The notes below the pieces were generated by a model. It made no database searches. It saw only the letters and a program-made list of their open reading frames with translations, and was not told the origin of the DNA. Positions 22,834 to 43,119 of a stretch of 45,439 bases of DNA are shown in pieces. Origin of the DNA: a virus. Lineage: Duplodnaviria; Heunggongvirae; Uroviricota; Caudoviricetes. Both the position numbers and the translations under genes were made by a program. How positions within the stretch are numbered: the stretch's first letter is position 1; every line of letters begins with the position of its first letter. Where the stretch lies: the IMG/VR virus record IMGVR_UViG_2872678658_000002; one strand, given 5' to 3'.

Positions 22834-22859
<26 letters not shown>

Positions 22860-23379
22860 TCAGCAACCCCGGTATCAGTTCATCCAGCGCGGCTGCTTTG
22901 TTCATGGCTTTGATGATATCCCGTTTCAGGAAATCAACATGTCGGTTTTCCAGTTCCGGAAAACGCCGCTGCACCGACAGGGGGATCCCGTCGAGAATAC
23001 TGGCAATTTCACCTGCGATCCGCGACAGCACGAAAGTACAGAATGCGGTTTCCACCACTTCAGCGGAGTCTCTGGCATTTTTCAGCTCCTGTGCGTCGGC
23101 CTGCGCACGCGTAAGTCGATGGCGTTCGTACTCAATAGTCCCTGGCTGGAGATCTGTCTCGCTGGCCTGGCGCAGTTCTTCAACCTCCCGGCGCAGCTTT
23201 TCGTTCTCAATTTCAGCATCCCTTTCGGCATACCATTTTATAACGGCGGCAGAGTCATAAAGCACCTCATTACCCTTGCCACCGCCTCGCAGAACGGGCA
23301 TTCCCTGTTCCTGCCAGTTCTGAATGGTACGGATACTCGCACCGAAAATGTCAGCCAGCTGCTTTTTGTTGACTTCCAT
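22834..23379 (-). CDS. Nu1: terminase small subunit Nu1
   Basis: 181 aa MEVNKKQLADIFGASIRTIQNWQEQGMPVL lambda Nu1-like. Confidence 0.95.
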
Positions 23380-23556
23380 TGTTCATTCCACGGCCAAAAA
23401 CAGAGAAAGGAAACGACAAAGGCCCAAAAGTTCGTTTTCAGCACCTGTCGTTTCCTTTCTTTTCAGGGGGTATTTTAAATAAAAACATTAAGTTACGACG
23501 AAGAAGAACGGAAACGCCTTAAACCGGAAAATTTTCATAAATAGCGAAAACCCGCG
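23380..23556 (-). promoter_or_regulatory. cosB-like terminase binding region between cosN and Nu1
   Basis: reverse complement matches remembered lambda left-end sequence (GGGCGGCGACCTCGCGGGTTTTCGCTATTTATGAAAATTTTCCGG...). Confidence 0.7.
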
Positions 23557-23568
23557 AGGTCGCCGCCC
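23557..23568. other. cosN cohesive-end site (12-nt, reverse complement GGGCGGCGACCT)
   Basis: aggtcgccgccc seen at 23557-23568 directly upstream of Nu1 on the phage strand. Confidence 0.85.
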
Positions 23569-23767
23569 CGTAACCTGTCGGATCGCCGGAAAGGACCCGC
23601 AAAATGATAATAATTATCATCTGCATGTCACAACGTGCATCTACGCCATCAAACCACGTCAAATAATCAATTATGACGCAGGTATCGTATTAATTGATCT
23701 GCATCAACTTAACGTAAAAACAACTTCAGACAATACAAATCATCGACACTGAATACAGGGCAACCTC

Positions 23768-24001
23768 ATGTCAACGAAGAACAGAACCCGCAGAACAACA
23801 ACCCGCAACATCCGCTTTCCTAACCAAATGATTGAACAAATTAACATCGCTCTTGTTCAAAAAGGGTCCGGGAATTTCTCAGCCTGGGTCATTGAAGCCT
23901 GCCGCCGGAGACTGTGCTCAGAAAAAAGAGTTTCGCCTGAAGCAAACAAAGAAAAGAGTGACATTACTGAATTGCTCAGAAAACAGGTCAGACCAGATTG
24001 A
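23768..24001 (+). CDS. small ribbon-helix-helix-like protein
   Basis: 77-aa ORF; N-terminal beta-strand/helix pattern (RNIRFPNQMIEQINIALVQKGSGNFSAWVIEACRRRL) resembles CopG/Arc-type RHH fold. Confidence 0.5.
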   Translation: MSTKNRTRRTTTRNIRFPNQMIEQINIALVQKGSGNFSAWVIEACRRRLCSEKRVSPEANKEKSDITELLRKQVRPD

Positions 24002-24058
24002 AGCAATTTAGATAATCGTGCAGACTACGCCCCCTCATATCACATGGAAGGTACTACA

Positions 24059-24469
24059 ATGGCTCAGGTTGCCATTTTTAAACAAATATTCGATAAAGTG
24101 CGAAATAATTTAAACTATCACTGGTTTTATTCTGAACTAAAACGTCACAATGTCTCACATTACATTTACTATTTAGCCACAGAGAATATTCATCTTGTTC
24201 TTGAAAACGATAATACGGTTTTAATAAAAGGACAGGGTAAGGTTGTAAATGTAAGATTTTCAAAAAATAAATGCCTTATAGAAGCCACCTTAAAAGGATT
24301 CAAATCAGGAGAGTTATCATTTTACGAATACAGGAAAAATCTTGCTACAGCAGGGGTTTTCAGATGGATTACAAATATCCACGAAAACAAAAGGTATTAC
24401 TATACCTTTGATAATTCATTACTCTTTACTGAGAACATTCAGAACACTACACAAATATTTCCGCACTAA
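24059..24469 (+). CDS. DUF1398-family protein (YbcV-like)
   Basis: start set at ATG 24059 preceded by GGAAGG; AT-rich; sequence recalled as resembling DLP12 YbcV/lambda right-arm ORF. Confidence 0.5.
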
Positions 24470-25057
24470 ATCATAACGTCCGGTTTCTTCCGTGCCAGAA
24501 CCGGACTCGCTGGCATGATGAAATATGTGTACCCGGTAACCCCGGTGTGCATCGTTTTTGATTATTCCCGCACACTCGCGCAGAAGGAGTTCCCCGTCGG
24601 GCTACGGTCTCTGTTAATACGGGAATACGGCGACGATACAGCGCATGATGTGTCAGGCTTGAATACCTTTATCCTTTAAAAGGGATATCAGTTAAGTTAT
24701 CCCGTGTAGGGTATAAGCCATTATCAAAGCCACTCTGTAGGGAATGGCTTTTGTGATGGCATCACTTACTCTTTACGCTGCTATCCCACTCATCCCGGAA
24801 TTTTGATGGGTTATTGAAACCTTCTGCTGACATAACAACTCCTTCAATGTTTGGCTGAAATTAGGATGTCTTTCCATCAGTCCGCCACCACAAAGAATCT
24901 TTTTTGCCATAAGGCAGGAGGTTCATCTTTCAGTGGCTGCCGGTGTTATTTCCCCACTTACTGGCTTGGGTTGTTTCGTGGTACTGCCGTTAACTGGTGG
25001 CCCAGAATAAATTCCGGTTTCATTATCAAGCCCACCCGTAAATGGGCTTTGTAATGG

Positions 25058-25333
25058 CTACTTCACTTTTGCTTTTGCTTTTGCTTTTGCTTCCGCTCGC
25101 TTACGCCGGCGCTCTTCTTTCCTCTCGGCTTTTGCCATGTCCATGAATGCCTGCATGATCGAGTTCCGCATCATGTAGCTAACAAAGTGATGATTGACAC
25201 AGCCGTTGAGGCGCAGCTGCTCGCCAAACTCATCCACCGAGGCCAATGCTTCCATCATGCCCTTCTCGCCTTTCATGAACTCTGAGAAGTCGCGCCCCGC
25301 TCTGGAGGCGCATTCAATAACACGATCACTCAT
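25058..25333 (-). CDS. hypothetical protein with C-terminal (AK)n repeat, coupled to KilA-N protein
   Basis: 91-aa ORF overlapping upstream gene by 4 nt; C-terminus encoded by tandem CTTTTG hexamers. Confidence 0.5.
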   Translation of the reverse strand: MSDRVIECASRAGRDFSEFMKGEKGMMEALASVDEFGEQLRLNGCVNHHFVSYMMRNSIMQAFMDMAKAERKEERRRKRAEAKAKAKAKVK

Positions 25334-25827
25334 CCCGGAAGCCCGGGGATCGTAATCTGCAGCTGGTTAGCCAGGGAGTTAATCTCAGCGACCAACACTG
25401 GCTTCGTATAGCGCCATGCTGCCAGCCCTTGTCCGCAGAAGCTCGCCATGTCTTTCTTCTGGTCAAACTCATGACATTTCATGTTGAGCTGCGCACTTAA
25501 GCTGTTGCGATGCTGAAGTTCTCCGGTGAAGTAGTCATCGAGGACTTTATAGGCCGCGTACTTGAACCCGGGGTTTAACCAAGCCGCATAATCGTAAGCA
25601 ACAAACTTCCCGCCATATGTTCCACCGTGTACACCGCGCTCAGTAAAAACCACAGATTCGTGGTTTTTCTCCAGCTCGGCTAAGAACTCTTTGGTCTGCT
25701 TGTTTCGCAGGTAGTGGTAAGGCGATTCAGATTCACTTTTACCACTGGCTTTCCACATATCAGTGAGGCAGATCATGCCATCTTCACCGATACGAATTGG
25801 TTGATTGAAGAGGGTTAATGATTTCAT
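25330..25827 (-). CDS. KilA-N domain protein
   Basis: 165 aa; N-terminal region (IRIGEDGMICLTDMWKASGKS...YLRNKQTKEFLAEL) fits the KilA-N pattern. Confidence 0.55.
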   Translation of the reverse strand: MKSLTLFNQPIRIGEDGMICLTDMWKASGKSESESPYHYLRNKQTKEFLAELEKNHESVVFTERGVHGGTYGGKFVAYDYAAWLNPGFKYAAYKVLDDYFTGELQHRNSLSAQLNMKCHEFDQKKDMASFCGQGLAAWRYTKPVLVAEINSLANQLQITIPGLPG

Positions 25828-25942
25828 AGCGTGTACCTACTCTTTGAAATGAACCTTTGCCGCACAGGAAACCAGCCCACCGAGGCTCGCCAGCACTAAC
25901 TGGTATCCTCAAAGGCCCATTCCAAAGGGGCAGGTTCGGTGT

Positions 25943-25967
25943 AAAAAACATGCGTTGCGGTACGCAT
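25943..25967 (-). terminator. candidate rho-independent terminator downstream of Rz/Rz1
   Basis: minus strand stem atgcgt-loop-acgcat followed by U-run (plus-strand A6 at 25943-25948). Confidence 0.4.
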
Positions 25968-26028
25968 TTATTGCAAAAAGCCCCGCATCGCGAGGCTCAT
26001 TAAATGGACTTTGTGATTTGCAAAAAAA

Positions 26029-26502
26029 TTATTTCAGGCATTGCGTCCTGATGTATTCCTGCAGGTAGTTAACCTGCGCGGTTATCTTGTCGATTCCACT
26101 TCGGAGACGGTAATAATTGAGTTCAGCATCTGCTGTAAGTCTTGGGCTTTCTCCATCGCCCATGCTGCTGGCTCCGGTCGTTGACTTTGCACAGGTGGCG
26201 GCGACTTGCAGGCGCTTACGACCAGCAGAAACATCAGCACGGAGACTTTCGATAGTCGCATTAGCATCAGCAAGCTCCTTTGTGTATCTGGCGTCGAGTT
26301 CTGCTACATCACGTTGACGCTTCCGCATGTCAGCGATGGTGGCGTTCGCCTTCTCCAGTTCACTGGCCTTGTTATCGCGCTGCTCTTTGTAGGCGATTGC
26401 GTTATCACGGTAATGATTAACAGCCCATGACAGGCAGACGATGATGCAGATAACCAGAGCATAAATAATCGCGGCGACTCTGCTCACTGATCTATCCCCC
26501 AA
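26029..26502 (-). CDS. Rz: spanin inner-membrane subunit Rz
   Basis: 157 aa, N-terminal TM then coiled coil, lambda/21 Rz-like. Confidence 0.85.
26082..26273 (-). CDS. Rz1: spanin outer-membrane lipoprotein Rz1 (embedded in Rz, +1 frame)
   Basis: 63-aa ORF wholly inside Rz; lipobox (VVSAC) and Pro-rich stretch. Confidence 0.75.
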
Positions 26503-27017
26503 CAGGCTAATGCGCTTTCCTGGTCACGACGAATAACCTGTCCATAGCAGTTATTTGAACGTATGCGGCAATCGCGCCCACCATCTTTTATCCACCAGCG
26601 AATCGCCTCGCATGCACCTTTACGATCACCGGCATTCAGCCGCTTATAAAACGTCGACGGGAAACACTTACCGGGGCCAATGTTATAGGGACAAAATGAC
26701 GCGATACCCGCTTTCTGTGGTTCGGTCAGTGGCACTTTAATATTGCGCTCCACCCATGCCAGCGCCTTATCCCGTTCAATGGCGTTAACCTGGTCGCATT
26801 TTTCCTTCGACAGTTTCATACCGGGAAAAACGGGTTTTCCATCCACCACCGTGGCACCCCGACAGATGGTCCAGATGCCGGAACCATCGCGGTATGCCGT
26901 TGTGTGGTTACCTTCTTTTTCATCCAGAAACTGGTCGAGAATATCAGGCGCAGGCGCACCGACGGCAATCAGTGCCAGAACGGCAGCCGACAGGCCGTAT
27001 CTGATTTTTGCGTTCAT
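26484..27017 (-). CDS. R: lysozyme (T4/P22-type, probable signal-anchor-release endolysin)
   Basis: 177 aa; N-terminal hydrophobic segment; E...D...T catalytic spacing in [16 protein letters not shown]. Confidence 0.8.
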
Positions 27018-27122
27018 GGATATTTATCAGGATTTATCGGTTTCTGAACCCTGGATATGTTTATCTGTCCCGGCCTGTTGAATCAGGCAAGGAATAGTTA
27101 AATACAATAGAGAGGATTGTTT

Positions 27123-27395
27123 ATGGACAATAGCACCATTTCTCTACAGGAGTTGCTCGACTGCATTTCCAGGCTTCGGGATGATGTAAATGCCCTTACT
27201 GTCGCATTTTCATATCTGGCATTCTCAATTCCCAAGGAACAAATGCAACCAACACTGGCATCGCTCCAGCTTGAATCACTCAACCCCAAATGGTCCCAGC
27301 AACAACAAAATTCTTTCAAGTGGCTGGCGGTATTACTGGAAGAAAAATATGCTGGTGAAATTACCATTTCGGCGGAGTCTTCAGAGAACCAGTAA
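27123..27395 (+). CDS. hypothetical protein encoded opposite to the lysis genes
   Basis: ATG at 27123 with GAGAGGA 6 nt upstream; TTGAAT...TACAAT promoter-like elements at 27078-27108; 35-nt convergent overlap with next gene. Confidence 0.4.
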   Translation: MDNSTISLQELLDCISRLRDDVNALTVAFSYLAFSIPKEQMQPTLASLQLESLNPKWSQQQQNSFKWLAVLLEEKYAGEITISAESSENQ

Positions 27396-27705
27396 TTCTT
27401 CCCGGTAGCTTTCCTTTGTAGGTTATCCACACATTCTGCGCCTCTAAAATTATGGGGCGCTTTTCCGGCGACAGCTCATCCCCTTCACATAACCCGGCAG
27501 CAACATCCAGGAAGACCTGTCTGATGCTCCTTCTGGCTGCTGCCTCATAAAACTCCAGCGCGGCACCTTCAACACGGTCCAGCGAGATGTCCAGGTCAAA
27601 AATTTCACCGTCAAAGCGTTTTTTGTCCCGTAACGCTAAAGTTACCGTAACTTTATTCTCAAAATTGCGGATCCCTTTCACAATCAGTTCATAGTTTTGA
27701 GTCAT
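27361..27705 (-). CDS. DUF1327-family protein (YdfR-like) between holin and lysozyme
   Basis: 114-aa ORF; sequence resembles remembered Qin YdfR, which occupies the same position. Confidence 0.55.
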   Translation of the reverse strand: MTQNYELIVKGIRNFENKVTVTLALRDKKRFDGEIFDLDISLDRVEGAALEFYEAAARRSIRQVFLDVAAGLCEGDELSPEKRPIILEAQNVWITYKGKLPGRITGSLKTPPKW

Positions 27706-27709
27706 TGAA

Positions 27710-27925
27710 TTACTCTCCCCGTGCAGCCTTACGCTTGTCTTCTCTGATTTTGAAGTACAGATTTGTCAGATAAGTCAGGAAGCCCAGAACCAGACTCCCA
27801 AGTACACCAATCGCAGCCCACTGTGACGGACTGACCTGATCAAGCCACTGTAAAAACCAGTAGCCAGCACTGCCTGCGGAGGTGCCGTAGGCAATGCCCG
27901 TTGAAATTTTGTCCATGGATTTCAT
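27710..27925 (-). CDS. S: phage-21-type pinholin S with dual-start motif (Met1/Met4)
   Basis: 71 aa [30 protein letters not shown]... matches remembered S21/EssD. Confidence 0.85.
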
Positions 27926-28047
27926 AGCCTCACCTCCGCAAATAACGGATGGCGTAGTTTTACACTGAGAAATGAAAGGGATTTGAAAAGAAAAGTAACC
28001 GGCTCATTTAAACCGTCTGGTCTGTTTCCTCCGGCTCTACAAAAATA

Positions 28048-28725
28048 ATGTCCATCATTTTTAATGGACACTATCGTATGAAACACCGGACCTGGATCAC
28101 TGAAGCTTTACGTCTTCACTTTGAAGAACATTTACCCCGGGTTGTGGCCGGGCGTCGCCTGGGTGTACCAAAATCAACAGTTTGTAGTATGTTCGTGCGC
28201 TTTCGGAGAGCTGGCCTTTCGTGGCCTTTGCCCGCAGGCATGTCGGAGCAGGAACTTGATGCCTGCCTTTACGGACAATTTTCCACGGTACCAGTCGTAC
28301 GTCCTGAAAGCACCGTTATATCCGAAGCCCCCGTGGTAAAAAAACGTCCCCGGCGGCCCAACTTCCCTTATGAGTTTAAAATCGCCTTAGTGGAGCAGTC
28401 ACTGCAGCCCGGAGCCTGTGTGGCGCAGATCGCCCGGGAAAACGGAATCAACGATAACCTGCTCTTCAACTGGCGCCATCAATACCGGAAAGGTGGCCTG
28501 CTGCCTTCCGGAAAAAATATGCCGGCACTGCTTCCCGTGACGTTAACGCCGGAGCCGGATAATAAAATCCCGGCCCCCGCACAGGAACCAGAGCAGATAA
28601 ATACACCGTCCGACAGTCTGTGTTGTGAGCTGGTTCTGCCGGCCGGAACTCTCAGGCTTAAAGGTAAACTGACGCCGGCGTTATTACAGACACTTATCCG
28701 CGAAATAAAAGGGAGCAGCCACTGA
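28048..28725 (+). CDS. tnpA: IS66-family accessory protein TnpA (HTH)
   Basis: 225-aa ORF, HTH-like segments; first of three IS66-type ORFs. Confidence 0.7.
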   Translation: MSIIFNGHYRMKHRTWITEALRLHFEEHLPRVVAGRRLGVPKSTVCSMFVRFRRAGLSWPLPAGMSEQELDACLYGQFSTVPVVRPESTVISEAPVVKKRPRRPNFPYEFKIALVEQSLQPGACVAQIARENGINDNLLFNWRHQYRKGGLLPSGKNMPALLPVTLTPEPDNKIPAPAQEPEQINTPSDSLCCELVLPAGTLRLKGKLTPALLQTLIREIKGSSH

Positions 28726-29072
28726 TGATATCTCTCCCTGCAGGTTCGCGTATCTGGCTGGTTGCAGGTATCACCGATATGCGAAATGGCTTTAACGGCC
28801 TGGCATCAAAAGTTCAGAACGTCCTGAAGGATGACCCGTTCTCCGGACACCTGTTCATCTTCCGCGGACGCCGGGGTGACCAGATAAAAGTGTTGTGGGC
28901 TGACAGTGACGGACTGTGCCTCTTCACCAAACGCCTGGAGCGGGGCCGCTTCGTCTGGCCAGTCACCCGTGACGGCAAGGTGCACCTTACTCCGGCTCAG
29001 TTATCCATGCTTCTTGAAGGTATCAACTGGAAGCACCCGAAACGAACGGAACGCGCTGGAATCCGCATATAA
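28725..29072 (+). CDS. tnpB: IS66-family protein TnpB (orfB)
   Basis: 115 aa, typical IS66 orfB size and sequence, start overlapping tnpA stop. Confidence 0.85.
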   Translation: MISLPAGSRIWLVAGITDMRNGFNGLASKVQNVLKDDPFSGHLFIFRGRRGDQIKVLWADSDGLCLFTKRLERGRFVWPVTRDGKVHLTPAQLSMLLEGINWKHPKRTERAGIRI

Positions 29073-29091
29073 CCCGTTGTAAAGTGAGGAT

Positions 29092-30663
29092 ATGGACACC
29101 TCACTTGCTCATGAGAACGCCCGCCTGCGGGCACTGTTGCAGACGCAACAGGACACCATCCGCCAGATGGCTGAATACAACCGCCTGCTCTCACAGCGGG
29201 TGGCGGCTTATGCTTCCGAAATCAACCGGCTGAAGGCGCTGGTTGCGAAACTGCAACGTATGCAGTTCGGTAAAAGCTCAGAAAAACTTCGTGCAAAAAC
29301 CGAACGGCAGATACAGGAAGCACAGGAGCGAATCAGCGCACTTCAGGAAGAAATGGCGGAAACGCTGGGTGAGCAATATGACCCGGTACTGCCATCCGCC
29401 CTGCGCCAGTCTTCAGCCCGTAAACCGTTACCGGCCTCACTTCCCCGTGAAACCCGGGTTATCCGGCCGGAAGAGGAATGCTGTCCTGCCTGTGGTGGTG
29501 AACTCAGTTCTCTGGGATGTGATGTGTCAGAGCAACTGGAGCTTATCAGCAGCGCCTTTAAGGTTATCGAAACACAACGTCCGAAACAGGCCTGTTGCCG
29601 GTGCGACCATATCGTGCAGGCACCAGTACCTTCAAAACCCATTGCACGCAGTTATGCCGGAGCGGGGCTTCTGGCCCATGTTGTCACCGGGAAATATGCA
29701 GACCATCTGCCGTTATACCGCCAGTCAGAAATATACCGTCGTCAGGGAGTGGAGATGAGCCGCGCCACGCTGGGGCGCTGGACCAGTGCTGTTGCTGAAC
29801 TGCTGGAGCCGCTGTATGACGTCCTGCGCCAGTATGTGCTGATGCCCGGTAAAGTCCATGCTGATGATATCCCCGTCCCGGTCCAGGAGCCGGGCAGCGG
29901 TAAAACCCGGACAGCCCGGCTGTGGGTCTACGTCCGTGATGACCGTAACGCCGGTTCACAGATGCCCCCGGCGGTCTGGTTCGCGTACAGTCCGGACCGG
30001 AAGGGTATCCATCCTCAAAATCACCTGGCCGGTTACAGCGGTGTGCTTCAGGCCGATGCTTACGGTGGTTACCGGGCGTTATACGAATCCGGCAGAATAA
30101 CGGAAGCCGCGTGTATGGCTCATGCCCGGAGAAAAATCCACGATGTGCATGCAAGAGCGCCCACCTACATCACCACGGAAGCCCTGCAGCGTATCGGTGA
30201 ACTGTATGCCATCGAGGCAGAGGTCCGGGGCTGTTCAGCAGAACAGCGTCTGGCGGCAAGAAAAGCCAGAGCCGCGCCACTGATGCAGTCACTGTATGAC
30301 TGGATACAGCAACAGATGAAAACACTGTCGCGTCACTCAGATACGGCAAAAGCGTTCGCATACCTGCTGAAACAGTGGGATGCACTGAACGTGTACTGCA
30401 GTAATGGCTGGGTGGAAATCGACAACAACATCGCAGAGAACGCCTTACGGGGAGTGGCCGTAGGCCGGAAAAACTGGATGTTCGCGGGTTCCGACAGCGG
30501 TGGTGAACATGCGGCGGTGTTGTACTCGCTGATCGGCACATGCCGTCTGAACAATGTGGAGCCAGAAAAGTGGCTGCGTTACGTCATTGAACATATCCAG
30601 GACTGGCCGGCAAACCGGGTACGCGATCTGTTGCCCTGGAAAGTTGATCTGAGCTCTCAGTAA
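29092..30663 (+). CDS. tnpC: IS66-family transposase TnpC
   Basis: 523 aa, N-terminal coiled coil/leucine zipper, Cys-rich zinc ribbon, DDE-like core. Confidence 0.85.
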
Positions 30664-31428: not shown

Positions 31429-32124
31429 TCAATCTACTTTTGCAACACTTTGCTTTGAAAATGCCGCCTTTTGTTTTGAACGTGTTCTCATTACAAACAA
31501 TAAAGCCTCACTATCAAGTCGGTGAAAAATGTGTTTCATTGCAACCCAGTGACGAGTAAATGTTTTGGACCAGTTTTTAGTTGTCACTCCCGCCAGTAAT
31601 GCCAGCTCCTGGTATTCATAACCTTCCCCACCAAAAAGTTCTGCTTTTACTGCCTGCGCCGCCAGCCAGATTAATTTTTTCAGGCGTTCCTGCGTTTTCC
31701 CTGCAATTTTTCTGGTACCGGATTGAGTATTAAATTCATTCCACGCCCACTGTGTTATCGCGATCTGATATTCCCAACAAATACTCCCGCTGTAACACCA
31801 CAACAACCAGGCTTTATGATGTTCTTCAAGAGACAGAACAGCCCGCCGCCACGATGATGTCGAAAACTCAACCGGACTGACCAGAGGTATTGACGTCCCC
31901 TTCGCCAGCGATTGCTTTCCCGGGATTGGTGGATTATCCCGCGTTATCATTTTTCCAGTCACTTCATCGCGGTACCGGATTTTTTTTCGCCTGTAACGCC
32001 CTGTATCGAACATGGCATTCTCTTGCCAGGCTTCAAGCTGACCTTTTGTTGCCCCACTCAAATCAGCGGTGGCGATAATGAGCTGCTCACGCACAAACTG
32101 TAAATACTGGTTATTCATGCGCAC
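31429..32124 (-). CDS. putative late-gene antiterminator Q (QuuQ-like)
   Basis: 231 aa; position immediately upstream of terminator hairpin, tRNAs and lysis genes; resembles remembered E. coli prophage Quu proteins. Confidence 0.5.
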   Translation of the reverse strand: MRMNNQYLQFVREQLIIATADLSGATKGQLEAWQENAMFDTGRYRRKKIRYRDEVTGKMITRDNPPIPGKQSLAKGTSIPLVSPVEFSTSSWRRAVLSLEEHHKAWLLWCYSGSICWEYQIAITQWAWNEFNTQSGTRKIAGKTQERLKKLIWLAAQAVKAELFGGEGYEYQELALLAGVTTKNWSKTFTRHWVAMKHIFHRLDSEALLFVMRTRSKQKAAFSKQSVAKVD

Positions 32125-36346: not shown

Positions 36347-37423
36347 TTACCCCCTGAAGCCCGGCGGAATTTCGTTATCCGGTTCAGAAATATGATTCAC
36401 ACAACGCTGGTTGTTCGTGCCGCTTACCGGGAGCAACCAGGGGTTCTCAAAATTCCGGTCTGGTCCAAAAAACGTCGTCGCTCGCTGAACAAATTCCGTT
36501 CCCGTTTTCCCGGTAGCCGCCAAGTATCTTGCGTAACGCCTCACGCCATCCAGCATGGCCTCTGGTGGCACCCCCTCGCGTAATCTGGCCTTCCAGGCAC
36601 TGAAAGCGGATTTCTTCGGGTTTGCCCCAGCACGCAACGGGTACTCCCGCCAGACCTGTTCGAACACATCCGGATAATCCACTCGTCCCACAGACTGCCC
36701 GGTGTTTTCCGGGACTACCCGATCGGCTTCCCGCTGAATGGCGGAATCGGCTTCGGGCTGCTGCAGTTGGTGTGATTGCTCCGGCCTTGCGGTCATCACC
36801 TGCTGCACAGCGCCCGAATCGGCTTTCAGCGCATACGCTGAATCGGCTTCCGGTGTCGTGCCTGCTGGCTGACCAAGATTGACGGTCTGAACATCCCCTG
36901 CCTGGTTCGTGGCGTTTTTTACGCCATGGACCATAGTGTTTTGATCTTCTTGATCTGTATCTTTATCTGTATCTTTATCTGTCGTGACTCGTCGTGACAT
37001 GTGCGTGACATTTCGTGACGCGCCGTGACAATCGCCATTTTGTTCCCGCTTTCTTTCCCTCTCTCGCTGCGCCCTCTTGCGCTCTGCAGGAGATTTTGCG
37101 GTTTGCGAAATATTGCCGTTGTCCTCTTTAAGCACCTGGCGTTTTTCCCATCCAGTGATTAAATCACCATCAAGTACCCGCCCCTGCATCGTCTGCAAAA
37201 TTGAATCAATTACCTCTTCTGTCACGTCGAGCGCACTTGCCAAATCTTCTGTCGTGACATCAATGTGACCTCGCGTGACATTTCGTGACGCGCTCACCAA
37301 GAGGTGGATATACACTGCCATCACTGTTGCAATTGGCTGCCCTGACACCCTGGCAATTGTTCGCCACTTAGGGTCATTTGGCATGTCATGCCATAATCTG
37401 AGCCAGGCGTTAGCCATACTCAC
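36347..37423 (-). CDS. replication initiator (lambda O-like role) containing its own iteron origin
   Basis: 358 aa; N-terminal winged-helix-like region; two iteron arrays and an AT-rich tandem repeat lie inside the coding sequence. Confidence 0.6.
   Translation of the reverse strand: MSMANAWLRLWHDMPNDPKWRTIARVSGQPIATVMAVYIHLLVSASRNVTRGHIDVTTEDLASALDVTEEVIDSILQTMQGRVLDGDLITGWEKRQVLKEDNGNISQTAKSPAERKRAQRERERKREQNGDCHGASRNVTHMSRRVTTDKDTDKDTDQEDQNTMVHGVKNATNQAGDVQTVNLGQPAGTTPEADSAYALKADSGAVQQVMTARPEQSHQLQQPEADSAIQREADRVVPENTGQSVGRVDYPDVFEQVWREYPLRAGANPKKSAFSAWKARLREGVPPEAMLDGVRRYARYLAATGKTGTEFVQRATTFFGPDRNFENPWLLPVSGTNNQRCVNHISEPDNEIPPGFRG
36983..37029. repeat. iteron array 1: five CGTGAC repeats at 10-11 bp phasing
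   Basis: repeat starts at 36983, 36993, 37004, 37014, 37024; preceded by (TCTGTATCTTTA)x2 and two GATC sites. Confidence 0.7.
37253..37289. repeat. iteron array 2: four (C/T)GTGAC repeats at about 10-bp phasing plus one inverted copy at 37221
   Basis: catttcgtgacgcgc is shared verbatim with array 1. Confidence 0.65.
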
Positions 37424-39393: not shown

Positions 39394-39612
39394 ATGCAGA
39401 AACGAGAACCCGTCATCATCGCGCCAGACTATACCGATGATGAACTTTATGAGTGGATGCGCCAGAAAATTAATGCAGCGCAGGATCTGAAATGGGCCAA
39501 TGAAGCCAGGGCTAAGCAGGCTGAAAATCTGTCCGCTCTGGAGCAGGATATCACCAATCTGGAAAAAGCAGCGGCATTAAGCATTGCCAGAATGATTACA
39601 TACCCGCGTTAA
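39394..39612 (+). CDS. YdfC-like small protein
   Basis: 72 aa with strong AAGGAG RBS; same size and position as Qin ydfC upstream of dicF. Confidence 0.6.
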   Translation: MQKREPVIIAPDYTDDELYEWMRQKINAAQDLKWANEARAKQAENLSALEQDITNLEKAAALSIARMITYPR

Positions 39613-39952
39613 TAGCTAACCAACGAAGCTAAGGTTGGTAATTAAGGAGTTCTCCACGGGTGAGGTGGAGTGCGTGCGCCGGACACGGGTGAACATCCAG
39701 CACAGACAGTTTACTGAAAGGATATTTCCCTGAAAAGTCAGACCATAACGCGAAAGCGCACGGCGAGGTAGCTGGTTCATAGATAGCCTGTCGTTAAATT
39801 TTCGTCGACCGTGCGCTTCCGGTTGTGGCACTCCGCGAAATGGCGCGGCGGTAAGTATGGCGGGGTTATTCCTTCCCCGTTGAGGACACCGGGTTGTCAG
39901 GTTGACCATACGCTTAAGTGACAACCCCGCTGCAACGCCCTCTGTTATCAAT

Positions 39953-40647: not shown

Positions 40648-43119
40648 ATGAGTAAAGTCTTTATTTGCGCCGCCATTCCGGACGAACAGGCAATAAAGGA
40701 AGAAGGTGCAGTTGCTGTAGCCACTGCCATTGAAGCCGGTGACAAACGCCGCGCCCGTGCCAAATTTACCTGGCAATTCCTGGAGCAATATCCGGCTGCT
40801 CAGGACTGCGCTTATAAATTTCTTGTCTGCGAGGATAAAACCGGCATGCCCCGCCCTGCTATAGACTCCTGGGATACCGAATATATGCAGGAAAACCGCT
40901 GGGATGAGGAATCCGCTTCCTTTATTCCGGTCGAACCAGAATCCGATCCGATGAACGTCAATTTTGACAAGCTGTCCCTTGAAGTACAGAACGCGGTTCT
41001 GGTTAAGTTCGGTACATGTGAAAACATCACCGTTGATATGGTGATTAGTGCTCAGGAATTACTGCAGGAGGACATGGCAACATTCGACGGGCATATCGTT
41101 GAGGCATTGATGAAAATGCCTGAAGTTAATGTCATGTATTCAGAGCTTAAGCTGCTCGCCATCGGGTGGGTTAAACATAAATGTAAGCCGGGTGCAAAAT
41201 GGCCTGAGATCCAGACAGAATTACGCACCTGGAAAAAACGTCGCGAAGCCGAACGCAAAGAAACCGGGAAATACACGTCTGTTGTTGATCTTGCCCGCGC
41301 CAGAGTCAACCGGCAGCACACTGAAAACTCAGCAGGAAAAATCAACCCCGCCACTGCCGCCATTCGTCGCGAATACAAGCAGACATGGAAAACGCTGGAT
41401 GAAGAACTGGCCTACGCTCTGTGGCCTGGTGATATTAATGCCGGAAACATTGACGGCAGCATCCATCGCTGGGCAAAAAATGAAGTTATCGACAAAGATC
41501 GCGAAGACTGGAAGCGTATCTCGGCATCAATGCGCAAACAGCCTGATGCCCTTCGCTACGACCGCCAGACTATTTTTGGCCTTGTCCGTGAACGTCCGAT
41601 CGACATTCACAAAGACCCTGTGGCACTGAACAAATACATTACTGAATACCTGACTACAAAGGGCGTGTTTGAAGATGAAGGAAGAAATCAGAGCACAACT
41701 GATACTCTCTCGTCGCCAGTACCAGAAACTGATGCAGTGGAAACGGCAATTCCGGACAACGAAAAAACCGAATGCCAAGTGGAAGTCGAACCATCTGTAG
41801 AGCGTGAGGGGCCGTTCTACTTCCTCTTCACCGACAAGGATGGCGAAAAATACGGTCGCGCAAACAAACTTTCTGGTCTGGATAAGGCACTGGCTGCCGG
41901 GGCTACTGAAATCACGAAAGAAGAATATTTCGCCCGCAAAAACGGTACATACTCAGGTTCACAACAAAATACTGGTACATCTGACACGACCGCACAACCA
42001 GGGCCGGTAAAAGTTACCGCTGACGAAGTAAACAAAATTATGCAGGCAGCCAATATCAGCCAGCCTGACGCCGATGAACTGCTTGCAGTATCACGTGGTG
42101 AATTTGTTGCAGGGATTAGCGATCCGAATGATCCGAAATGGGTGAAGGGGATTGAAACCCGCGATTCTGTGAACCAGAACCAGCAAAAAACGGAACAGAA
42201 CGACCAGAAAGCGGAACAAAACAGCCCAAATACGCAACAAAACGAGCCAGAAACGAAACAACCTGAACCAGTAGTGCAACAGGAACCGGAAAAGATCTGC
42301 ACCGCCTGCGGTCAGAGCGGTTGCGGCAACTGCCCTGATTGTGGCGCGGTGATGGGCGACGCAACATACCAGGAAACATTCGATGAAGAGAATCAGGTTG
42401 AAGTTCAGGAAAATGATCCGGAGGAAATGGAAGGCGCTGAACATCCACACAAGGAGAACACTGGCGGCAATCAGCATCACGATAGCGATAATGAAACTGG
42501 CGAGGCGGCAGATCACTCAATTAAGGTGAACGGTCATCACGAAATCACATCCACCAGCAGAACGTGTGACCATCTAATGATCGACCTCGAAACCATGGGA
42601 AAAAATCCTGATGCCCCGATTATCTCAATAGGTGCAATATTTTTCGATCCGCAAACCGGAGATATGGGACCGGAATTTAGTAAGACTATCGATCTGGAAA
42701 CTGCTGGCGGAGTCATTGATCGGGACACCATTAAATGGTGGCTGAAGCAATCACGCGAAGCGCAATCTGCCATTATGACCGATGAAATCCCGTTAGATGA
42801 TGCACTGTTACAATTGCGAGAATTTATCGACGAAAACTCCGGTGAATTTTTTGTTCAGGTCTGGGGAAATGGAGCCAACTTCGACAACACGATTTTGCGC
42901 CGTTCATACGAACGGCAGGGGATCCCCTGCCCGTGGCGTTACTACAACGATCGCGATGTACGCACAATCGTTGAGCTGGGGAAAGCCATAGACTTCGATG
43001 CCAGAACGGCTATTCCATTCGAAGGTGAGCGCCATAATGCACTTGATGACGCCCGTTACCAAGCAAAATACGTTTCAGCTATCTGGCAAAAACTGATCCC
43101 GAGTCAGGCTGATTTTTAA
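40648..43119 (+). CDS. multidomain exonuclease (YdfE-like; C-terminal DnaQ-like DEDDh 3-prime-5-prime exonuclease)
   Basis: 823 aa; Q/N-rich linker, CTACGQSGCGNCPDCG zinc ribbon, C-terminal DLETMG...NGANFD...HNALDD exonuclease motifs. Confidence 0.7.
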   Translation: MSKVFICAAIPDEQAIKEEGAVAVATAIEAGDKRRARAKFTWQFLEQYPAAQDCAYKFLVCEDKTGMPRPAIDSWDTEYMQENRWDEESASFIPVEPESDPMNVNFDKLSLEVQNAVLVKFGTCENITVDMVISAQELLQEDMATFDGHIVEALMKMPEVNVMYSELKLLAIGWVKHKCKPGAKWPEIQTELRTWKKRREAERKETGKYTSVVDLARARVNRQHTENSAGKINPATAAIRREYKQTWKTLDEELAYALWPGDINAGNIDGSIHRWAKNEVIDKDREDWKRISASMRKQPDALRYDRQTIFGLVRERPIDIHKDPVALNKYITEYLTTKGVFEDEGRNQSTTDTLSSPVPETDAVETAIPDNEKTECQVEVEPSVEREGPFYFLFTDKDGEKYGRANKLSGLDKALAAGATEITKEEYFARKNGTYSGSQQNTGTSDTTAQPGPVKVTADEVNKIMQAANISQPDADELLAVSRGEFVAGISDPNDPKWVKGIETRDSVNQNQQKTEQNDQKAEQNSPNTQQNEPETKQPEPVVQQEPEKICTACGQSGCGNCPDCGAVMGDATYQETFDEENQVEVQENDPEEMEGAEHPHKENTGGNQHHDSDNETGEAADHSIKVNGHHEITSTSRTCDHLMIDLETMGKNPDAPIISIGAIFFDPQTGDMGPEFSKTIDLETAGGVIDRDTIKWWLKQSREAQSAIMTDEIPLDDALLQLREFIDENSGEFFVQVWGNGANFDNTILRRSYERQGIPCPWRYYNDRDVRTIVELGKAIDFDARTAIPFEGERHNALDDARYQAKYVSAIWQKLIPSQADF

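Follow-up and report, generated by a model that had tools for sequence, protein, structure and literature searches.

We analysed a 45,439-nt stretch of DNA from a virus of the Caudoviricetes (IMG/VR record IMGVR_UViG_2872678658_000002), hereafter the window, and focused on two minus-strand open reading frames (ORFs) of 165 and 91 amino acids that lie between the lysis gene Rz and the cos site (Table 1). Our best explanation, to which we give a probability of roughly 55%, is that the two genes form a rha-locus accessory cassette of a lambda-like prophage, belonging to the domain-shuffling Bro/KilA-N/Rha/antirepressor network, and we propose a mechanism for its expression and action. An initial annotation of this DNA had named a KilA-N gene, an overlap with the 91-aa ORF and a repeat at the end of the latter, and all of these elements are found in the sequence. 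To our knowledge, Bro, KilA-N and Rha proteins rank with the most frequent accessory proteins of phages, and a function has been demonstrated for only a few of them.

Table 1. Features of the cassette and its surroundings, with positions in the window
Feature	Position	Strand	Remarks
Q antiterminator gene	31429-32124	minus	
Lysozyme gene	26484..27017	minus	upstream of the cassette, adjoining Rz
Rz gene	26029..26502	minus	directly upstream of the cassette
Terminator-like hairpin 1	25973..25998	minus	GAGCCUCGC-GAU-GCGGGGCU then UUUUU; just after the Rz stop; from sequence and RNA fold of 25828-26040
Terminator-like hairpin 2	25940..25967	minus	AUGCGU-ACCGCA-ACGCAU then GUUUUUU; from terminator scan and fold
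Structured leader	25836..25929	minus	imperfect ~40-bp hairpin; 3' arm holds the Shine-Dalgarno region of the KilA-N gene
KilA-N + ORF11CD3 protein gene	25330..25827	minus	165 aa; Pfam; PHROG 129 and 10441
ATGA stop/start overlap	25330..25333	minus	junction of the KilA-N gene and the 91-aa ORF
Small partner gene	25058..25333	minus	91 aa; PHROG 875; three helices, long basic C-terminal helix
In-frame hexanucleotide microsatellite	25066..25092	minus	(GCAAAA)4 on the coding strand, encodes (AK)4
Two-tier 3' hairpin	25021..25057	minus	outer CAUUA/UAAUG, inner AAGCCCAUU/GGUGGGCUU; free energy ~ -16 kcal/mol
DUF3950 (YlcI/YnfO-like) and DUF1398 genes	23768-24469	plus	31-43% GC; antisense to the late operon
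Lambda cosN, exact	23557-23568	minus	GGGCGGCGACCT; ahead of Nu1 and gpA
Nu1 gene	22834..23379		behind cosN

A candidate KilA-N allele of the rha locus

The 165-aa protein carries a KilA-N domain at residues 9-101 (PF04383; 57.6 bits against a Pfam cut-off of 23.8), as the initial annotation had recognised, followed by an ORF11CD3 domain at residues 109-161 (PF10549; 50.5 bits against a cut-off of 25). In phage P22, rha (orf201) occupies the identical position, directly after gene 15/Rz, and its product combines Phage_pRha (79.8 bits, Pfam) with ORF11CD3. The C-terminal domain of the window protein shares 35% of its residues with the C-terminus of P22 Rha (E = 2e-8), whereas its N-terminus is KilA-N and gives no Pfam match to Phage_pRha. 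About 100 nt before the start codons are ~99% identical between the window and P22 rha, and the two ATGs align. Since the position, the leader, the aligned ATGs and the ORF11CD3 domain are all shared with P22 rha, the window gene is, from its sequence, a rha-locus allele in which KilA-N replaces the pRha N-terminal domain. N-terminal domain swaps of this kind have been described for the 'Bro network' (PMC10111431). The cassette thus resembles the rha genes of P22 and phi80, for which the comparison was made with P22, in its post-Rz position in the late operon, its leader hairpin and its ORF11CD3 C-terminus, and differs from them in its N-terminus and in having a PHROG 875 gene, which P22 lacks. 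rha belongs to the late operon and harms lytic growth in hosts that lack integration host factor (IHF) (PMC4936722); the block of phage growth in such hosts is a phenotype of Rha from the literature. No P22_AR_N, P22_AR_C or ANT domain was found in the 165-aa protein at E <= 0.01.

The comparison also bears on the annotation of P22 itself (NC_002371; L131 in our set). The annotated start of P22 rha, 39575, falls inside the conserved leader hairpin, and the leader model ends at an internal ATG at 39644 (MNELIAN...; region 39575-39646) that is aligned with the KilA-N ATG of the window. Because the leader ends at this aligned ATG, translation of P22 Rha probably skips the 23 residues at its annotated N-terminus.

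The cassette is common in enterobacterial phages and already catalogued there, with no function assigned to it. Annotated, uncharacterised pairs with DNA 95-100% identical to that of the cassette occur in many phages, among them HK620 (hkbK/hkbL), the Shiga toxin (Stx) 2 phages 1717 and 2851 ('kilA'), ECP1 and PhiR49_1 ('KilA-N-ORF11CD3'). A second scan of viral contigs, with 312 IMG/VR loci, returned close relatives only, and a scan of genome contigs returned six loci. HK620 hkbK/hkbL, HK97 p60/p61 and the 'kilA' plus hypothetical gene of Stx phages represent the same two-gene cassette, although the small gene of HK97 and mEp234 stands behind a KilA-N-P63C variant and these relatives mostly have a short, interrupted tail (AEAKAK, 85 aa) where the window has (AK)4VK. 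A literature search on hkbK/hkbL, PhiR49_1 and KilA-N genes after Rz gave nothing specific on function.

A small gene coupled to Bro-type genes

The KilA-N gene and the 91-aa ORF overlap in an ATGA, and no Shine-Dalgarno sequence stands ahead of the ATG of the small ORF, which is therefore likely translated by termination-reinitiation. We surveyed 127 distinct sequence contexts of the small gene. In 110 of them an ORF ends within 12 nt of its ATG, and the remaining 17 are contig edges or frameshifted KilA-N alleles. The upstream ORF encodes a Bro-network protein (KilA-N or pRha) no more than 8 nt away in 110 of 110 intact contexts. Most of these partners are KilA-N-ORF11CD3 proteins with a 4-nt overlap (95/110); 11 are KilA-N-P63C proteins with a 2-nt spacer, as in HK97 and mEp234, two are pRha proteins with a 4-nt overlap, one is a pRha-ANT protein and one is a KilA-N-ORF11CD3 protein with an 8-nt overlap. 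The overlap, the lack of a Shine-Dalgarno sequence and this tight junction in all intact contexts together support the translational coupling suggested in the initial annotation. The pair is not confined to one place in the genome. It follows the lysis genes in the window, lies inside the tail genes in Klebsiella RAH1 and Enterobacter asburiae, and is also found inside arc/mnt/ant immI-like operons, in Rouxiella beside the tailspike gene.

Frameshifted KilA-N alleles (146 aa, ...DQKRHGELL; L024 2957-3397 and L143 879-1319) leave the small ORF uncoupled. L143 is labelled as a 'Candidatus Nanosynbacter' metagenome-assembled genome contig; since it carries E. coli phage DNA, the label is probably a binning error.

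The small protein matches PHROG 875 over the full profile (residues 1-85 against profile positions 1-85 of 85, E = 3.9e-54) and ends in ...RAEAKAKAKAKVK, also written ...RKRAEAKAKAKAKVK, with AKAKAKAKVK as its last residues. It has no relative in Pfam, NCBIfam or, by a sequence-profile search of the family, the PDB, and the family is narrow, with 21 clusters at 50% identity among 1.8 billion representatives. An AlphaFold2 model built with 22 homologues has a predicted local distance difference test (pLDDT) score of 91.4 and places helices at residues 3-20, 26-42 and 48-90; a Foldseek search with this model against the PDB and BFVD gave helical-bundle noise only, all at E > 0.1. In the family alignment, the N-terminal core ECASRxGRDFS ... 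GCVNHHF and the basic stretch EERRRKR are invariant, and the last 5-12 residues are lysine-rich and variable. C8, C45, H48 and H49 show little or no variation in the close family and were considered as a zinc site, a candidate that was dropped because C8 and H48 are lost in T5orf172 fusions. The database protein P0001, which looks like a natural fusion of ORF11CD3 and the small protein, was rejected as a frameshift product.

Distant relatives (PHROG 4284) contain the first ~56 residues of the small protein fused to a T5orf172/MUG113 domain, which speaks for membership of the small protein in the Bro domain network. The genes of these fusions occupy the same hot spots as the small-protein genes, and in one of them (L141) the leader model described below ends at the start codon of the fusion gene. 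Because T5orf172 takes the same C-terminal position in the fusions as the basic helix takes in the small protein, the tail may be a nucleic-acid-binding module. PHROG annotations of relatives include 'anti-repressor'.

The strict downstream coupling in all intact contexts would also be expected of a self-neutralising toxic pair. In such a pair, arranged like a type II toxin-antitoxin system with the toxin first, the KilA-N protein would do harm, as P1 KilA does or Rha in IHF-deficient hosts, and the small protein would inhibit it stoichiometrically. Restraint of expression by terminator-like hairpins and by a hairpin that masks the Shine-Dalgarno sequence would suit such a pair, as would the reported detriment of Rha to phage growth without IHF (PMC4936722). 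We nevertheless regard it as unlikely. Neither PADLOC nor NCBIfam gave a toxin or antitoxin model match, P22 rha has no such partner, and the domain compositions of the upstream partners differ, which makes a single inhibitor interface unlikely. Moreover, the small ORF stays intact in the frameshifted KilA-N alleles.

A covarying leader RNA in front of the KilA-N gene

The RNA between the terminator-like hairpins and the KilA-N gene folds into a long, imperfect hairpin with a minimum free energy of -48.7 kcal/mol (z = -3.0). It contains nine G-U pairs, and the sense strand is 8.7 kcal/mol more stable than the antisense strand (-48.7 against -40.0 kcal/mol). The leaders of HK97, mEp234, Klebsiella RAH1 and E. 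asburiae have another sequence and the same fold. A covariance model built from four leader sequences retrieved 33 copies, which were aligned by fitting them to the model. In this alignment, 92% of the cells are paired, compared with 38-49% in slid controls, both sides have changed in 25 of 29 pairs, and the observed covariation was reached by none of 500 shuffles. A structure-blind analysis with MAFFT and RNAalifold recovered the same helices with 13 pairs, of which 10 show compensatory changes. In front of the leader, hairpin 2 (stem 25967-25950, U-run to 25940) has its counterpart in relatives, where a short GC hairpin stands ahead of the leader, and its P22 homologue shows a compensatory change of U-A to C-G.

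An enlarged model, R2, finds the window leader at 25840-25929 with 37.3 bits, its top match in the window, and the P22 leader at 39518-39642; other copies include L133 2147-2273 and L141 3890-4004. Full-length matches to the model all end at a start codon; the window match is local and stops 12 nt before the ATG. The genes that follow the leader are of several kinds. They encode KilA-N-ORF11CD3, KilA-N-P63C, the Rha of P22 (pRha-ORF11CD3), P22_AR_N-ORF11CD3, HNH_3-AP2 and T5orf172 fusion proteins, proteins with tail-tip-like domains and a 155-aa protein with no Pfam match. In the window and in five relatives, the leader gave no match to an Rfam family at E <= 1, and an Rfam scan of 23000-28000 gave one spurious small nucleolar RNA match only. 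Elsewhere in the relatives, the Hfq-binding small RNA isrJ is matched above its Rfam gathering score at L144 36-114, in a Leclercia prophage, and more weakly at L133 475-545, between Q and the holin gene; both lie well upstream of the cassette.

The nearest analogues that we can cite are T4 hairpins that sequester the ribosome-binding site (RBS) of homing-endonuclease genes, for which they are typical, and of late genes (PMC2988022). The leader resembles them as a stable hairpin over the RBS of an accessory gene on a long polycistronic transcript, but at ~40 bp it is far longer, and its regulatory role is a prediction. An internal promoter inside the leader, which by analogy with T4 would free the RBS, was considered and dropped, as none was found by eye or by scan.

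The leader may have a wider significance. We suggest, tentatively, that it is an undescribed and widespread cis-regulatory RNA, consisting of the short GC hairpin and a covarying hairpin of 100-125 nt, which reaches exactly to the start codon and hides the Shine-Dalgarno sequence. In this role it might gate the translation of swappable late-region accessory genes of at least eight types in lambdoid and P22-like phages in a common way, and perhaps mark a recombination boundary for them. The same tentative proposal would make PHROG 875 a general co-factor of the Bro network with a slippage-tuned DNA-binding tail.

The spread of the leader could also point to a selfish mobile cassette, in which leader, Bro-type gene, small gene and 3' hairpin would travel together from one phage genome to another, through a homing-like or site-specific mechanism served by the proteins themselves. 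The cassette occurs after lysis genes, inside tail genes and in immI regions, its leader also stands before HNH_3-AP2 and T5orf172 (GIY-YIG-like) genes, the T4 hairpins of this type guard homing-endonuclease genes (PMC2988022), and the mosaic junctions are flanked by hairpins. However, a nuclease domain is recognisable in neither cassette protein by Pfam or NCBIfam, and homologous recombination at conserved boundaries explains the mosaicism equally well. We therefore give this explanation a low probability.

A cassette of the late operon

Q, the lysis genes, cos and the terminase genes all lie on the minus strand, as does the cassette. The positions of Rz and of the exact lambda cosN bear out the placement between Rz and cos in the initial annotation, with 1.5 kb that hold two oppositely oriented, AT-rich genes (DUF3950 and DUF1398) parting the cassette from cos. 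This antisense pair looks like a typical moron. The GC content of the cassette itself, ~50%, is like that of its neighbours and differs from that of the AT-rich genes next door. Between Rz and the KilA-N ATG, a minus-strand scan for sigma-70-like promoters found none. The initial annotation had spoken of an operon with a candidate terminator of its own; since no promoter of its own was found, we describe the two genes as a late-operon cassette and not as an autonomous operon.

The cassette could still be a lysogenic-conversion or defence moron, a pair expressed from the prophage that protects the lysogen from other phages or counters host defence. The interval between the lysis genes and cos is a known hot spot for accessory genes, and bor of lambda sits there. 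Among defence models, PADLOC gave for the two proteins only marginal matches, a weak, local one of the KilA-N protein to the candidate system PDC-S22 (31 residues, E = 1.2e-8) and one to QatB (E = 0.013); NCBIfam returned no informative match and no toxin, antitoxin or defence model for either protein. Morons are recognised by a promoter of their own, a factor-independent terminator and a deviant base composition, and the cassette shows none of these by a scan for consensus promoters, by its 3' hairpin, which has no U-run, and by its composition, which is that of the late genes. It is preceded by two terminator-like hairpins, and it is unlike the truly moron-like DUF1398 and DUF3950 genes beside it, which are AT-rich and antisense. 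We consider this explanation quite unlikely.

At the 3' end of the cassette, a terminator had been proposed at about 25030-25053, and a hairpin is indeed present there, but it is larger (25021-25057), and because the sense strand has no U-run behind it, it is not a canonical intrinsic terminator. The hairpin is kept across 27 sequence variants at -16 to -19 kcal/mol with G-U/A-U exchanges, and it coincides with a mosaic junction, the sequence of relatives diverging right past GATAATG. A paralogous hairpin with the same CCAT.ACAAA...GATAATGG flanks and compensatory stem changes lies at 24727-24752 and closes a 300-bp module (24756-25029) that is absent from some of the relatives. Within it, an AAGGAG Shine-Dalgarno sequence precedes a 23-aa ORF (24762-24833, minus strand; MSAEGFNNPSKFRDEWDSSVKSK), and the coding test of this ORF rested on seven distinct sequences only.

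Two further features of the window were noted. An IS66-family element with three ORFs (HTH_Tnp_1, TnpB_IS66 and DDE_Tnp_IS66) lies at 28048-30663 on the plus strand and separates Q from the lysis genes. Tandem repeats of 10-12 nt and 21 nt form clusters at 36948-37030 and 42175-42261; the former cluster is inside a 358-aa ORF (36347-37423) and may consist of origin-type iterons.

In-frame slippage of the hexamer repeat

The lysine-rich end of the small protein is encoded by a perfect hexamer repeat. Tandem Repeats Finder reports CTTTTG x 4.5 with 100% matches at 25066-25092, so that the unit and the start given in the initial annotation are correct and its end, 25095, overshoots by 3 nt. It is the sole perfect array of at least four copies within the 45-kb window, and by our own estimate the chance of its 21-nt exact self-match at lag 6 is ~1e-8 per window. 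A recombination break inside the repeat, considered because many phage matches start at 25083, was rejected, as these matches combine a shorter allele with divergent downstream DNA.

A scan of IMG/VR with a 22-mer from conserved coding sequence beside the repeat returned 120 loci. The commonest allele, found at 79 of them, ends in RAEAKAK before the stop codon and has the interrupted repeat GCAAAAGCGAAG; length variants of this form are absent from the 120-locus sample. A second lineage ends in (AK)nVK, encoded by GAAGC(AAAAGC)nAAAAGTGAAGTAG. All 36 (AK)nVK alleles in IMG/VR, collected by a gapped-pattern scan, have two (12 alleles), three (14), four (5), five (4) or six units (1). The variation in copy number predicted in the initial annotation is present even among near-identical loci, defined by at most one substitution relative to the window in the 700 nt upstream and an unchanged 100 nt downstream: these have two (L063), three (L029, L094, L111), four (L092, L078, L112), five (L041, L086, L115) or six units (L062). 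Among 5,426 complete E. coli genomes, 525 carry the cassette and four match the 801 nt of the window exactly. The genomes that match next best cover 795 nt at 99.3% identity, approximately the value for a single 6-nt gap, and so would have one unit fewer and little or no other change. The opposite expectation, an invariant repeat in two characterised lambda right-arm ORFs, does not describe the locus, as copy number varies and neither protein matched a lambda right-arm ORF of known function.

The repeat thus behaves as a replication-slippage hotspot that changes faster than point substitutions accumulate. The tract may have become unstable once the ancestral GCAAAAGCGAAG turned into a perfect GCAAAA repeat. 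Each unit adds two residues and one positive charge at the end of the basic helix. Some database small proteins (P0008, P0014, P0065, P0067 and P0113) run past the stop into the 3' hairpin (...AEAKRSSHYKA...), which would fit the loss of a single A from the A4 run of a repeat unit, either by homopolymer slippage or through sequencing error.

Like simple-sequence contingency loci, the tract is a perfect coding tandem repeat whose copy number differs between otherwise identical genomes. One could therefore suppose an adaptive contingency locus, with the length of (AK)n under diversifying selection to tune the activity or specificity of the module, for instance non-specific DNA binding, and to give the phage population ready functional variants. 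Five length classes at 0-1 substitutions and the location of the tract on a conserved basic helix fit this idea. In contrast to contingency loci, however, copy-number polymorphism is accompanied by no frame shift and no change of promoter spacing. Every observed length allele is in frame, and because the unit is 6 nt, a multiple of three, the tract changes the length of the tail and cannot switch the gene on or off. The extreme C-terminus is the least conserved part across the family, the short interrupted form is the commonest, and the counts fall toward longer tracts, which we read as unselected slippage. Adaptive length variation is thus distinctly improbable to us, and the (AK)n tract is probably near-neutral, at most fine-tuning affinity, a view that draws on its position and variability.

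Discussion

Our data suggest the following mechanism for the rha-locus cassette. Transcription would occur only through read-through by Q-modified RNA polymerase from the late promoter, because no promoter was found and the base composition is like that of the late genes. The leader hairpin would throttle translation of the KilA-N gene, and ribosomes that terminate at the overlapping UGA would translate the small ORF, so that both proteins are made together. The two proteins might then form a nucleic-acid-binding regulatory module of the Rha/antirepressor type, to which KilA-N would contribute sequence-specific DNA binding and the small protein a lysine/arginine-rich helix. The toxin/inhibitor pair, the contingency locus, the defence moron and the mobile cassette are each possible, and are less well supported than this explanation.

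Several points weigh against the cassette as we describe it. The upstream partners have no single domain in common (KilA-N or pRha at the N-terminus; ORF11CD3, P63C or ANT at the C-terminus), which argues against a simple domain-specific complex, and the physical interaction of the KilA-N protein with the small protein is putative. Homology gives neither protein a biochemical activity in searches of Pfam, NCBIfam and PADLOC. The promoter scan covered the sigma-70 consensus only, and weak or activator-dependent expression in the lysogen is possible. Because the IS66-family element sits between Q and the lysis genes, late transcription of this particular prophage may be impaired. The covariation alignment (A5) was fitted to the covariance model, and the neutrality of the repeat is deduced from position and variability.

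The immI region of P22 (mnt-arc-ant) offers a further comparison. Distant relatives of the small protein are found in arc/mnt-controlled operons, directly behind Ant-like and pRha/ANT genes. The window cassette, in contrast, has no Arc, Mnt, P22_AR_N, P22_AR_C or ANT and sits in the late operon.

In the contexts examined, enterobacterial Bro-type genes are always the genes coupled directly in front of a PHROG 875 gene. The hexamer is a natural example of in-frame slippage outpacing point substitution in prophages; its functional weight is probably small, and it could help to tell apart, on a fine scale, prophages that are identical in all else. Most worth pursuing are the leader RNA and the role of the small protein as a universal partner. 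Together, a KilA-N allele of the rha locus, a coupled small partner and a structured leader that may gate translation provide handles on the old puzzle of Rha and IHF.

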